In this document: positions 51-5,360 of the stretch, piece after piece
Layout: each line of letters opens with the position of its first letter
How positions within the stretch are numbered: position 1 is the stretch's first letter
Assembly: GCF_003334315.1 (NCBI RefSeq)
Contig: NZ_QOWR01000095.1
Length of the DNA: 5,360 nt
Strand: one strand, 5' to 3'
Source of the DNA: Escherichia coli
GTDB lineage: Bacteria; Pseudomonadota; Gammaproteobacteria; Enterobacterales; Enterobacteriaceae
Position numbers and translations under genes: made by a program
Notes under the pieces: generated by a model
Told to the model about the DNA's origin: nothing
Seen by the model: the letters and a program-made list of their open reading frames with translations, nothing else
Databases searched by the model: none

Positions 51-293
51 GTGTATGGAAATATAGGGGCCAATCCAGAAGCCAATCTGATAGTTGATAA
101 TTTAATTACAGATAAGTTACCGCTGGAATTTTCTTCATGGGTCGCGAGAATGCGTACGCCAGAAGCGTTAGTAGACGCTATTCGCATTTACCAACAGAGC
201 GCATCGACAGAGGTGAGAACGTATTTTGCCTTGCAGAATGATGGCTTTTTCACCAGTGATATCATCATGGTAGATGCACATAAAGCGGCATAA
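51..293 (+). CDS. yafE: 3' portion of a putative SAM-dependent methyltransferase (YafE-like); only the last ~80 codons are open in this window, so it may be truncated or a pseudogene
   Basis: Open frame ends at TAA 291-293, convergent with mltD and followed by a shared hairpin terminator. Upstream the frame is closed by TGA 42-44 and TAA 45-47, and the other two forward frames also carry stops (TAA 38-40, TAG 64-66), so no frame is open across positions 1-66. The first in-frame start is GTG at 51. The symbol is assigned from synteny as I recall it (the gene convergent with mltD in E. coli K-12); the methyltransferase call is a weak inference from that identification, since the 80 residues contain no diagnostic motif. 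Confidence 0.45.
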   Translation: MYGNIGANPEANLIVDNLITDKLPLEFSSWVARMRTPEALVDAIRIYQQSASTEVRTYFALQNDGFFTSDIIMVDAHKAA

Positions 294-295
294 AT

Positions 296-330
296 AAAAA
301 AGGCACCGGGGGAATCGGTGCCTTTTTATT
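296..330. terminator. Bidirectional intrinsic terminator shared by convergent yafE and mltD
   Basis: Perfect inverted repeat GGCACCG (302-308) / CGGTGCC (316-322) with a 7-nt loop, flanked by an A-tract (296-301) and a T-tract (323-330). Either strand therefore reads as a GC stem followed by a U-run. It lies 3 nt after the yafE stop and about 11-19 nt from the mltD stop. Confidence 0.75.
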
Positions 331-340
331 ATCTGGTTTG

Positions 341-1699
341 TCAGGAATCTGGCATGTTGTTGTTTTTCACAAACAACGTCAGCTTATCGCCTGGTTGCAG
401 ATTCGCAGTGTCGCTGTTCCAGCGCATCACATCTTTGATGTTCACGCCGTGGCGTTTAGCAATGCTTGAAAGCGAATCGCCTTTGCGCACACGATACGTA
501 ATGCTATCGCTGTTGTTTGCCAGTCGCTGTGCGCTACTGCCTGCACCAATCGTCAAACTTTGGCCTGGCTTCAGCTTAGATCCGCGCAGTTTGTTCCACT
601 GCTGCAAATCTTTGGTGCTTACGCCGAGACGTGAAGCGATACTTGAAAGCGTGTCGCCAGAGCGTACGGTGTAAACACGGCTGTTAAGCGGCGTATTGTC
701 GGCAACCAGCGTCGACTGTACAGCAGCAATTTCGCCTGAAGCCAGAGATTCACGCAGTTGATCTGCATGCTTCTTTGGCACCATCACGTACTGCGGGCCA
801 CTTGCGCCCAGCGTGGAGCCTTTTACGCCAGCGTTGAATGTCTTCAGCTTGCTGACGGAAATCCCCGCCATATCTGCTACCTTCGCCATTTCAACCGGGC
901 TGCTCAGGTGCACACGCGCCAGAGCACGGCTTTCATCGGTCGTTGGCAGACGTACGCCATAACGCTTGCTGTTTTTGAGAATATCACTCAATGCCAGCAT
1001 TTTAGGCACGTACTGCTTCGTTTCCTGCGGCAACGGTAACGACCAGAAGTCCGTGGATTTCCCACGCGCTTTGTTGGTTTTAATTGCCTTCATGACCCGA
1101 CCTTCGCCGCTGTTATAAGCCGCTACGGTCAGAAGCCAGTCGCCGTCAAACATTTTGTTCAGACGCTGCATCATATTCAGCGCGGCAGTTGTTGAAGCAA
1201 CAACATCGCGACGCGCGTCATAATTGCGGGTCTGTTTCAAACCATAATTGCGCCCCGTGCTCGGAATGATCTGCCAGATGCCTGCGGCATTGGCGCCAGA
1301 CGTTGCGTGAGGATCAAAAGCGCTCTCCACTATGGGTAGTAGTACCAGTTCCATAGGCATGTTACGTTTTTTAACTTGCCCTGCTATCCAGTACATATAC
1401 GGCTCTGCCCGTAAAGTTACATCGTGGAGATAGCTCTTATTGCGTAAATATTTCTGTTTCTGTTCGCGAATCCGGTCATTTTCCGGAATTCCCATCTTTA
1501 GCTCGTCGCCAATGAAAGCCCACAAGTCACCATCTGGCGCGATAGACGTCCCATCGTCCATCCATCGTGCCTGACTTGTAAACTTTGCTGCTTCCCCTTG
1601 ACCAGCTGCAGAAAGGCTCTGTGCGTGCTGTTGAACGTTGCCGGTACTCTGGCAACCCACGAGCAGGACAGAGGCGAGTAATATCGCTTTTGCCTTCAT
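341..1699 (-). CDS. mltD: Membrane-bound lytic murein transglycosylase D (lipoprotein with a lytic transglycosylase domain and two C-terminal LysM repeats)
   Basis: 452-aa ORF. N-terminus MKAKAILLASVLLVGC has a signal peptide and LVGC lipobox. The lytic transglycosylase catalytic region is present (LPIVESAFDP ... AAYNSGEG). Two LysM-like repeats occur at the C-terminus (YTVRSGDTLSSIASRLGV..., YRVRKGDSLSSIAKRHGV...). Length and sequence match E. coli MltD as I recall it. Confidence 0.95.
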   Translation of the reverse strand: MKAKAILLASVLLVGCQSTGNVQQHAQSLSAAGQGEAAKFTSQARWMDDGTSIAPDGDLWAFIGDELKMGIPENDRIREQKQKYLRNKSYLHDVTLRAEPYMYWIAGQVKKRNMPMELVLLPIVESAFDPHATSGANAAGIWQIIPSTGRNYGLKQTRNYDARRDVVASTTAALNMMQRLNKMFDGDWLLTVAAYNSGEGRVMKAIKTNKARGKSTDFWSLPLPQETKQYVPKMLALSDILKNSKRYGVRLPTTDESRALARVHLSSPVEMAKVADMAGISVSKLKTFNAGVKGSTLGASGPQYVMVPKKHADQLRESLASGEIAAVQSTLVADNTPLNSRVYTVRSGDTLSSIASRLGVSTKDLQQWNKLRGSKLKPGQSLTIGAGSSAQRLANNSDSITYRVRKGDSLSSIAKRHGVNIKDVMRWNSDTANLQPGDKLTLFVKNNNMPDS

Positions 1700-1731
1700 G
1701 TGTGTGTCAATAGTTGCTTAAAAGACGACCG

Positions 1732-1760
1732 ATCATAACGGCGAACGGAGCCGATGACAA
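1732..1760 (-). promoter_or_regulatory. Candidate sigma70 promoter for mltD
   Basis: On the minus strand: -35 TTGTCA (plus coordinates 1755-1760), a 17-bp spacer, and -10 TATGAT (plus 1732-1737), about 30 nt upstream of the mltD ATG. It sits in the 71-bp gloB-mltD gap. Sequence match only. Confidence 0.35.
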
Positions 1761-1770
1761 GAAAGTTTTA

Positions 1771-2529
<759 letters not shown>

Positions 2530-2559
2530 TTACCTCTCAGTGTGAAACGGAAGGTTGTG

Positions 2560-3282
2560 ATGAAACCGGCAAGAGTCCCTCAAACTGTCGTGGCTCCTGA
2601 TTGCTGGGGCGATTTGCCCTGGGGAAAGCTTTATCGCAAGGCGCTGGAGCGCCAGCTCAACCCGTGGTTCACTAAAATGTATGGTTTTCATCTGCTTAAG
2701 ATTGGCAATTTAAGCGCAGAAATCAATTGCGAAGCGTGCGCGGTTTCTCATCAAGTGAATGTTTCTGCGCAAGGAATGCCCGTCCAGGTACAGGCGGACC
2801 CACTTCATCTTCCTTTTGCCGATAAATCCGTTGATGTTTGTCTACTGGCACATACATTGCCGTGGTGCACCGATCCGCATCGTTTATTGCGTGAAGCCGA
2901 TCGGGTATTGATTGATGATGGCTGGCTGGTCATTAGTGGCTTCAATCCCATCAGTTTTATGGGATTACGCAAACTTGTGCCGGTATTGCGCAAAACCTCG
3001 CCCTATAACAGCCGGATGTTTACTCTGATGCGGCAGCTGGACTGGCTCTCTTTGTTGAATTTTGAAGTGCTACACGCCAGCCGTTTCCACGTTCTCCCGT
3101 GGAACAAACACGGAGGAAAACTATTGAATGCGCATATTCCTGCGCTTGGTTGCTTACAACTTATTGTTGCCCGGAAACGGACTATTCCTTTAACGCTAAA
3201 TCCGATGAAACAGAGTAAAAACAAGCCACGAATTCGCCAGGCGGTTGGAGCCACCCGGCAATGTCGTAAACCACAGGCTTAA
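2560..3282 (+). CDS. yafS: Putative SAM-dependent methyltransferase YafS
   Basis: ORF in frame 1 ending at TAA 3280-3282. The preferred start is ATG 2560 (MKPARVP...), preceded by GGAAGG at 2549-2554 with a 5-nt spacer; this gives 240 aa. The track's upstream GTG at 2542 would add 6 residues but has no better RBS. The product call follows the usual annotation of this conserved gene; I did not verify motifs beyond a general methyltransferase-like composition. Confidence 0.85.
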
Positions 3283-3746
3283 ACTTCAACTTGGTAGCCT
3301 GTATCTTCCAGTGTGGGATTCATCGCCGCGGCACGAGCCAGTTCATCACAGCGTTCGTTTTCCGGGTGTCCGGCATGGCCTTTAACCCATTCCCATTTGA
3401 TTTGATGCTGCCCCAATGCAGCATCAAGACGTTGCCAGAGATCGACATTTTTTACTGGTTTTTTGTCTGCGGTTTTCCAGCCACGTTTTTTCCAGTTATG
3501 GATCCACTGGGTGATACCCTGGCGGACATACTGGCTGTCGGTACTCAAAATGACTTCGCAATGTTCTTTTAACGCCTCCAGCGCGACAATAGCGGCCATC
3601 AACTCCATACGGTTGTTGGTGGTGCGGGTGTAGCCAGCGCTAAAGGTTTTCTCGCGTCCGCGATAGCGTAAAATAGCGCCGTAACCCCCAGGTCCTGGAT
3701 TGCCCAGACACGAACCATCGGTGAAAATTTCTACCTGTTTAAGCAT
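3279..3746 (-). CDS. rnhA: Ribonuclease HI
   Basis: 155-aa product [21 protein letters not shown]...[21 protein letters not shown] with the RNase H carboxylate residues in their expected contexts ([25 protein letters not shown]). The start is ATG at 3744-3746 (minus strand) preceded by AGGAAG. The 192-aa ORF in the track is an in-frame upstream extension lacking an RBS. Confidence 0.95.
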
Positions 3747-3810
3747 CTCTGGTAGACTTCCTGTAATTGAATCGAACTGTAAAACGACAAGTCTGACATA
3801 AATGACCGCT
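3747..3810. promoter_or_regulatory. Divergent rnhA/dnaQ intergenic control region
   Basis: 64-bp AT-rich gap between back-to-back start codons (rnhA 3746 on minus, dnaQ 3811 on plus). It contains -35/-10-like hexamers (TTGAAT 3767-3772, ATAAAT 3798-3803), but I could not pair them into a confident promoter. Divergent overlapping promoters are established for this gene pair in E. coli. Confidence 0.5.
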
Positions 3811-4542
3811 ATGAGCACTGCAATTACACGCCAGATCGTTCTCGATACCGAAACCACCGGTATGAACCAGATTGGTGCGCACTATGAAGGCCACAAGATC
3901 ATTGAGATTGGTGCCGTTGAAGTGGTGAACCGTCGCCTGACGGGCAATAACTTCCATGTTTATCTCAAACCCGATCGGCTGGTGGATCCGGAAGCCTTTG
4001 GCGTACATGGTATTGCCGATGAATTTTTGCTCGATAAGCCCACGTTTGCCGAAGTAGCCGATGAGTTCATGGACTATATTCGCGGCGCGGAGTTGGTGAT
4101 CCATAACGCAGCGTTCGATATCGGCTTTATGGACTACGAGTTTTCGTTGCTTAAGCGCGATATTCCGAAGACCAATACTTTCTGTAAGGTCACCGATAGC
4201 CTTGCGGTGGCGAGGAAAATGTTTCCCGGTAAGCGCAACAGCCTCGATGCGTTATGTGCTCGCTACGAAATAGATAACAGTAAACGAACGCTGCACGGGG
4301 CATTACTCGATGCCCAGATCCTTGCGGAAGTTTATCTGGCGATGACCGGTGGTCAAACGTCGATGGCTTTTGCGATGGAAGGAGAGACACAACAGCAACA
4401 AGGTGAAGCAACAATTCAGCGCATTGTACGTCAGGCAAGTAAGTTACGCGTTGTTTTTGCGACAGATGAAGAGATTGCAGCTCATGAAGCCCGTCTCGAT
4501 CTGGTGCAGAAGAAAGGCGGAAGTTGCCTCTGGCGAGCATAA
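3811..4542 (+). CDS. dnaQ: DNA polymerase III epsilon subunit (3'-5' proofreading exonuclease)
   Basis: 243-aa product [17 protein letters not shown]... with the DEDDh exonuclease motifs (Exo I DTETTG, Exo II HNAAFD, Exo [17 protein letters not shown]) and the C-terminal QTSMAF beta-clamp-binding motif. An alternative in-frame ATG at 3802 would add 3 residues; 3811 corresponds to the canonical protein. Confidence 0.95.
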
Positions 4543-4617
4543 ATACCTGTGAAAGGCGCTAAAAATAGCGACTTGGGCGATTTTTGCAGCAAACGATTCA
4601 AAAGATGAGAAAAACCG

Positions 4618-4646
4618 TTGACGAAGGTCGAGGCAATCCGTAATAT
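4618..4646 (+). promoter_or_regulatory. sigma70 promoter of tRNA-Asp (aspV)
   Basis: -35 TTGACG (4618-4623), 17-bp spacer, -10 TAATAT (4641-4646), followed by a GC-rich discriminator TCGCCTCG (4647-4654) and preceded by an A-rich stretch (4600-4616) that could act as an UP element. The tRNA begins about 28 nt after the -10. This architecture is typical of stringently controlled stable-RNA promoters. Confidence 0.6.
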
Positions 4647-4674
4647 TCGCCTCGTTCCCAACGGAACACAACGC

Positions 4675-4751
4675 GGAGCGGTAGTTCAGTCGGTTAGAAT
4701 ACCTGCCTGTCACGCAGGGGGTCGCGGGTTCGAGTCCCGTCCGTTCCGCCA
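4675..4751 (+). tRNA. aspV: tRNA-Asp (anticodon GUC), 77 nt with encoded CCA
   Basis: GGAGCGGTAGTTCAGTCGGTTAGAATACCTGCCTGTCACGCAGGGGGTCGCGGGTTCGAGTCCCGTCCGTTCCGCCA. Acceptor stem GGAGCGG/CCGTTCC, GTC anticodon in a CCTGTCACG loop, and a T-arm GGTTCGAGTCC. The locus name comes from its position immediately downstream of dnaQ. Confidence 0.97.
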
Positions 4752-4781
4752 CTATTCACTCATGAAAATGAGTTCAGAGAG

Positions 4782-4811
4782 CCGCAAGATTTTTAATTTT
4801 GCGGTTTTTTT
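4782..4811 (+). terminator. Intrinsic terminator downstream of tRNA-Asp
   Basis: Stem CCGCAA (4782-4787) / TTGCGG (4799-4804) with an AT-rich loop, followed by a T7 run (4805-4811). Confidence 0.6.
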
Positions 4812-4907
4812 GTATTTGAATTCCACCATTTCTCTGTTCAATGATTTTACTCTGGCGTAGGTGCGTGATTCTCGCTTGTTGTCTCATTCATTAAAATTCA
4901 ATAATGA

Positions 4908-4930
4908 GGTAATGACTCCAACTTATTGAT
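4908..4930. repeat. IS1 terminal inverted repeat (right end)
   Basis: GGTAATGACTCCAACTTATTGAT at the element boundary, the characteristic ~23-bp IS1 end. The partner repeat lies outside the window. Confidence 0.85.
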
Positions 4931-5360
4931 AGTGTTTTATGTTCAGATAATGCCCGATGACTTTGTCATGCAGCTCCACCGATTTTGAGAACGACAGCGA
5001 CTTCCGTCCCAGCCGTGCCAGGTGCTGCCTCAGATTCAGGTTATGCCGCTCAATTCGCTGCGTATATCGCTTGCTGATTACGTGCAGCTTTCCCTTCAGG
5101 CGGGATTCATACAGCGGCCAGCCATCCGTCATCCATATCACCACGTCAAAGGGTGACAGCAGGCTCATAAGACGCCCCAGCGTCGCCATAGTGCGTTCAC
5201 CGAATACGTGCGCAACAACCGTCTTCCGGAGACTGTCATACGCGTAAAACAGCCAGCGCTGGCGCGATTTAGCCCCGACATAGCCCCACTGTTCGTCCAT
5301 TTCCGCGCAGACGATGACGTCACTGCCCGGCTGTATGCGCGAGGTTACCGACTGCGGCCT
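4923..5360 (-). CDS. insB: IS1 transposase InsB (ORF B of the InsAB' frameshift fusion), 5'-truncated by the window edge
   Basis: The minus-strand frame is open from the window end (5360) to TAA at 4923-4925 and encodes ...[145 protein letters not shown]. The track's 125-aa ORF (4923-5300) starts at an internal Met. Confidence 0.93.

Follow-up and report, generated by a model that had tools for sequence, protein, structure and literature searches.

We identified a copy of the insertion sequence IS1 in the intergenic spacer that follows the tRNA-Asp gene aspV of Escherichia coli, at the right end of the 5,360-bp stretch of DNA that was analyzed (hereafter the window). The element is an ordinary IS1A copy, of a kind already known. 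The AT-rich spacer between aspV and yafT in which it lies is a recurrent target of IS1, and most of the IS1 copies that we mapped in or near it in other strains border large deletions. By comparison with these strains, the IS1 copy in the window probably marks the edge of a deletion in which yafT was lost together with some or all of the T6SS-1 cluster. The copy leaves aspV and the housekeeping genes upstream untouched.

Gene content of the window

The window is the entire draft contig QOWR01000095.1 of assembly GCA_003334315.1, in reverse complement. Both ends of this contig lie in repeated insertion sequences, IS1 at the right and an IS3-family element at the left. Short-read assemblies typically break at repeated IS elements, and the window stops inside IS1 because it is the whole of a short-read draft contig. 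The truncation of IS1 at the window end is thus an assembly artefact. Judging from annotated relatives, the gene order is a yafE remnant, mltD, gloB, yafS, rnhA, dnaQ and aspV, followed by IS1. Bases 72–4907 align with complete E. coli genomes, the closest of which is 13C1065T. Within this alignment the only differences between the window and 13C1065T are at position 2423, in gloB, and at the left-end junction. The gloB difference is non-synonymous (V35A, codon 35) and is private to the window when compared with the relatives examined, 13C1065T included. The exact GloB V35A protein is found on only 8 contigs in a public assembly collection.

The initial annotation had taken everything up to aspV for conserved housekeeping sequence. 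This description is mostly correct; however, it does not hold for positions 1–78, which represent one terminus of an IS3-family element that has inserted into yafE. The element is ISEc27-like and its 78 nt are identical to ISEc27 of strain 5270. The 3' remnant of yafE follows at 79–293 on the plus strand and aligns with yafE of strains EP91B and 13C1065T. Because positions 1–78 are an ISEc27-like end, the 4.8-kb housekeeping segment is bracketed by two different insertion sequences. The junction between the IS3-family element and yafE is absent from the complete E. coli genomes searched.

In several close relatives, too, the annotation lists yafE as a pseudogene truncated at its N-terminus, in their case with no IS at that place (3116–3694 in R2; 3098–3694 and 11627–12223 in others). 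Decay of yafE has therefore followed more than one route in this group. In strain 5270 the ISEc27 copy (2339–3697) interrupts an ArdC/zincin-like gene beside a Hachiman defence locus consisting of HamA and a helicase.

The aspV gene and the native spacer

The gene aspV, encoding tRNA-Asp (GTC), occupies positions 4675–4751 on the plus strand (ARAGORN; Rfam RF00005, 67.7 bits) and is annotated directly after dnaQ in relatives. It is the sole tRNA gene that ARAGORN and Rfam report in the window. On its 3' side a consensus scan identified a terminator-like hairpin with a T tract (4776–4810, plus strand), which is also present in an IS-free relative. An effect of the insertion on aspV expression was considered and rejected because this hairpin lies upstream of IS1.

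The segment between aspV and IS1 (4752–4907) comprises the first 156 nt of the 327-nt AT-rich intergenic region that separates aspV from yafT. Alignment of this segment with relatives, which the initial annotation had proposed, revealed native sequence with 100% identity through position 4907. The last native bases in the window are ...TTCAATAATGA, and relatives go on with TATCGAACC. The GC content of the aspV–yafT intergenic region is 30%, with a trough of 17–24% just past the junction, and IS1 inserted at the margin of this most AT-rich stretch. In native coordinates a promoter-like site of yafT is found 83 nt past the insertion point.

The IS1 copy

The first base of IS1 in the window, at 4908, is the exact terminal base of the element. 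The right inverted repeat (IRR, GGTAATGACTCCAACTTATTGAT) spans 4908–4930 and does not differ from the IRR of complete 768-bp copies in relatives, so that the terminal inverted repeat of about 23 bp that belongs to the IS1 family is present. The window contains the IRR-proximal 453 of 768 nt (4908–5360, minus strand), or 59% of the element, and all 453 nucleotides are identical to those of the IS1A copy in strain R2. The contig ends before the A6C frameshift site and the left end are reached, and any target duplication would likewise fall past it. Judged from R2, whose copy is identical, the T6 run of this motif begins about 3–4 nt past the end of the window.

Positions 4923–5360 encode on the minus strand the C-terminal 145 codons and the stop codon of insB/InsAB'. 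The product matches the IS1 family transposase model NF033558 (138 bits against a cut-off of 100, E = 3.8e-40) as well as PF03400, and the IS1-family DDE transposase is thus represented by its C-terminal 145 residues only. It had been claimed that the right end of IS1 lies at 4908, 156 nt after the tRNA, and that insB points back toward the tRNA. The coordinates, the sequence identity and the profile matches all agree, and therefore distance, boundary and orientation are right and none of them is due to chance. The junction string that had been given with these claims, AATAATGAG followed by GGTAATG, puts the boundary correctly at 4908 but contains one G too many; the window reads AATAATGA followed by GGTAATG. 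Because the true string is one G shorter, the 9-bp target predicted from the junction position, which would be duplicated in the case of a simple insertion, is CAATAATGA (4899–4907) and not AATAATGAG.

The position at which the window breaks off, 453 nt from the IRR (window position 5360), is shared by contigs from many unrelated assemblies and assemblers that stop exactly there. On record are 177 blocks that stop at this IS1 position, and a scaffold gap in ADKF01000018.1 also coincides with it. The polymorphisms seen among IS1 copies (at 325, 465/468/471, 507 and 642) leave the shared break position unexplained. A chromosomal IS1 remnant was considered as its cause and rejected, as the candidate turned out to be a scaffold gap.

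The junction in other assemblies

Draft contigs can misjoin at repeats, and the IS1 position at which this contig ends is a stopping point of many assemblies. An assembly chimera between the flank and IS1 would therefore be one explanation of the junction. However, the independent contig LYBE01000065.1 has the identical junction. It corresponds to positions 59–4927 of the window, and so includes 20 nt of each insertion sequence and both junctions. A further contig, DABAWT010000112.1, corresponds to positions 80–4904 and breaks just short of each junction, 3 nt before IS1 on the right. A misjoin would also have to coincide with the exact terminal base of IS1. Since two other assemblies agree with both junctions, we conclude that the junction between flank and IS1 is real and clonally inherited, and we give a chimera almost no credence.

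The assemblies assigned to the same lineage are GCA_003334315.1, GCA_002190225.1 and GCA_012531215.1. All contigs with the private GloB allele stop at the same repeats; four Logan contigs with the V35A allele end inside aspV. A second contig of the source assembly, QOWR01000004.1, ends in IS1 at the same position and on the IRR side, and the source genome therefore carries at least two IS1 copies. A lookup of the cut InsB product identified no IRL-side IS1 contig from this assembly.

When 5,426 complete E. coli genomes were searched with a 60-nt probe for the flank–IS1 junction, none contained the identical sequence. Likewise, the 27-nt junction gave 0 matches in GTDB species representatives and 0 in JGI metagenome contigs. 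The nearest junction is that of EP91B, in which a different IS1, about 6% divergent, is inserted one base upstream. The YafT allele of the closest relative is too common to trace the far side of the element (5689 blocks, of which the longest contigs were listed).

The region beyond aspV in relatives

The initial annotation had anticipated variable accessory DNA beyond the tRNA, and the relatives bear this out. In 13C1065T, the complete genome closest to the window, the order after aspV is the 327-nt spacer, yafT, ykfM, the T6SS-1 cluster, an ISAs1 copy and yafV, a region of about 24 kb. Its T6SS-1 genes are hcp, vasL, tssM, tssA, tagH, tssG–tssB, a further hcp, vgrG and rhs. The same region has been described as an aspV-associated island, about 37 kb in length in the EHEC strain EDL933 (PMC5363993). 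According to the portion of a second study that was available to us, T6SS genes have been lost in a non-phylogenetic manner in E. coli, in multidrug-resistant (MDR) lineages through deletion or IS insertion; ST410 shows an IS-free recombinational deletion and ST131 an insertion event that inactivates the T6SS (PMC10711316). Neither IS1 nor aspV appears as a term in that study.

A tRNA 3' flank can also receive islands by integrase-mediated insertion, and the IS1 junction had been read as the likely edge of accessory DNA. aspV is indeed a real integration site in some strains. In ABWA45 a tyrosine-recombinase gene and island DNA (603–2000) lie upstream of the flank, between it and aspV. However, the att repeat of ABWA45 consists of the final 14 nt of the tRNA and immediately precedes the 156-nt flank, and islands therefore attach at the tRNA end and not at position +156. 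In the window the tRNA 3' end, GTCCGTTCCGCCA, occurs once only, at 4739–4751, with no second copy near 4908, and no direct repeats are found in 4600–5360. There is no integrase gene next to aspV in the window, and the gene order is that of island-free relatives. Native sequence on both sides of the junction, that is the 156-nt flank together with its continuation toward yafT, is found in 4071 of 5,426 complete E. coli genomes, K-12 included, and 4908 is the exact end of IS1. With no second copy of the tRNA end, no repeats and the att site of ABWA45 elsewhere, we rejected the reading that a genomic island or prophage of the integrase type has its boundary at 4908, for which we see next to no probability.

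Recurrent insertion of IS1 between aspV and yafT

Probes that combined the flank with the IS1 ends identified IS1 within about 0.8 kb of the flank in 65 genomes in the orientation of the window and in 86 genomes in the opposite orientation. From the top matches listed in two such searches, 15 other distinct IS1 junctions were mapped onto 13C1065T. Relative to the junction of the window, four of them lie at offsets of −6 (FAM21845), −1 (EP91B), +5 (ECCHD184) and +10 (ECCWS199). These are followed by junctions at +42 (cM8a), +61 (SLK172), +80 (ABWA45) and +104 (PK6), and at +126, where R2 and, independently and in the opposite orientation, MLI023K1 have an IS1 end. The remaining junctions are at +160 (63-2), +241 (TA8571), +323 (DETEC-P80 and many others), +527 (WS4437A-1) and +849 (2023CK-01509). 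When the window is counted, 12 of the 16 junctions among the matches listed fall within a 178-nt intergenic stretch (binomial P = 4e-6 versus a uniform distribution). IS1 transposase targets AT-rich DNA, and the AT-rich aspV–yafT spacer is a recurrent IS1 target.

Two independent IS1 events of opposite orientation share one 9-mer target in the spacer, CGTTATCAA, at 8426–8434 in R2 and at 2274–2282 in MLI023K1. The event in R2 is a simple insertion, and that in MLI023K1 borders a deletion that extends to ISAs1.

The mapped junctions differ in what lies on the far side of IS1. Among the matches listed, 11 of the 15 classes have a single IS1 without a target duplication, and the far flank is 14–24 kb away, in tssC, in the rhs region, in ISAs1 or beside yafV. 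A single IS1, the lack of a duplication and flanks 14–24 kb apart are together the signature of an IS1 adjacent deletion, here of yafT and T6SS-1. Two further classes are simple insertions (R2, with CGTTATCAA as a 9-bp target-site duplication, and WS4437A-1, with an 8-bp one), and in the last two, EP91B and cM8a, the far flank does not map to the reference region. The four junctions within 10 bp of that in the window are, among the matches listed, all of the deleted or rearranged type. Other relatives have IS1-bounded deletions with different left ends, for example a truncated ykfM followed by IS1 and yafV.

Clustering is seen at the far ends of the deletions as well. Of the 11 mapped far flanks, seven begin within the ISAs1 copy (ISEc1) next to yafV or just alongside it, at seven different positions (23579–24411 of the reference, reverse complement).

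What the IS1 copy in the window borders

As the initial annotation had recognized, the window alone cannot show the far border of IS1, because the contig ends within the element. The three scenarios that it had set out, a simple insertion, a composite, and a deletion or rearrangement, were apt, and deletion is the commonest outcome among the comparators. Because most comparator IS1 junctions at this site border a deletion, the IS1 of the window probably borders a similar one, which would include yafT and part or all of T6SS-1. Such a deletion would have begun with an IS1 that landed either near aspV, in the AT-rich aspV–yafT spacer past the tRNA terminator, or at the distal end. Intramolecular transposition of IS1 would then have deleted the adjacent yafT and part or all of T6SS-1. 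The product would be a single IS1 without a target duplication, with aspV and dnaQ intact and with IS1 as the aspV-proximal border of the deletion.

Every one of the comparator deletions may have begun as a simple insertion, and the window could still be at that stage. The locus would then consist of a 768-bp IS1 flanked by a 9-bp duplication of CAATAATGA, with the remaining spacer, yafT and T6SS-1 intact beyond it. The left end of IS1, ...AAGTTGGCAGCATCACC, would continue with CAATAATGATATCGAACCATTCAGC into yafT, and the flanking sequence would read ...AGTTGGCAGCATCACC–CAATAATGA–TATCGAACCATTCAGC... into yafT. The promoter-like site of yafT, on the downstream side of the IS1 insertion, would remain attached to its gene. 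R2 and WS4437A-1 are arranged in exactly this manner, and 13C1065T, the closest strain by SNPs, retains yafT and the cluster with no IS1-bounded deletion. However, among the matches listed, simple insertions account for only 2 of the 15 mapped classes, and the four junctions that lie 10 bp or less from that of the window include no such case. We therefore consider a simple insertion unlikely, though a serious contender.

Other rearrangements would include an inversion between IS1 copies or recombination between them, a composite segment with IS1 on either side, or replacement of the native region by foreign or IS-derived DNA. In EP91B the divergent IS1, one base from the junction of the window, is followed by fragments of IS5, IS3 and IS66 and by a phytase-like gene, and in both EP91B and cM8a the far flank could not be mapped to the reference region. 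In addition, the source genome has at least two IS1 copies, and another insertion sequence is found just 4.8 kb to the left. However, such arrangements are rarer than plain deletions in the comparators (2 of 15 among the matches listed), and the window offers no sign of one. We regard a rearrangement of this type as decidedly improbable.

The recurrence of deletions at this site, with the window lineage probably among the affected strains, raises a broader question. The aspV–yafT spacer may be a mutational hot spot at which deletions of the entire T6SS-1 cluster have become anchored to IS1 again and again. It would then constitute a convergent route of loss in commensal, livestock and MDR E. 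coli, of which the window lineage would be one more independent instance. We put this forward tentatively, as a possibility that we find somewhat doubtful. At least 11 independent IS1-bounded T6SS-1 deletions are anchored in or near a spacer of less than 200 nt beside aspV. If the hot-spot proposal is true, and if selection for T6SS loss rather than target preference alone drives the recurrence, it would extend what has been reported on non-phylogenetic T6SS loss in E. coli.

The IS1 copy in the window is itself of minor importance, being a standard copy at a repeat-induced contig end. The pattern to which it belongs points to a simple way of screening draft genomes for T6SS-1 loss by means of the junctions. 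Contig breaks at aspV–yafT often hide a deletion. Knowledge of IS1-anchored T6SS-1 deletions may help studies of T6SS distribution in E. coli.

Comparison with known systems

The copy in the window is like IS1A of E. coli over all 453 nt available, including the IRR, in the C-terminus of its transposase and in its AT-rich target. It differs in its exact insertion site, which is occupied in 0 of 5,426 complete E. coli genomes. The gal region of E. coli K-12 provided the classical examples of IS1-mediated adjacent deletions. The comparators analyzed here match those deletions, in that a single intact IS1 without a duplication separates flanks that are 14–24 kb apart in the reference, whereas for the copy in the window the likeness is drawn from these other strains. 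The window itself contains no T6SS gene. However, it shares its chromosomal site with the aspV-associated T6SS island (PMC5363993), and in relatives the T6SS cluster lies beyond the position of IS1 and has been variably lost.
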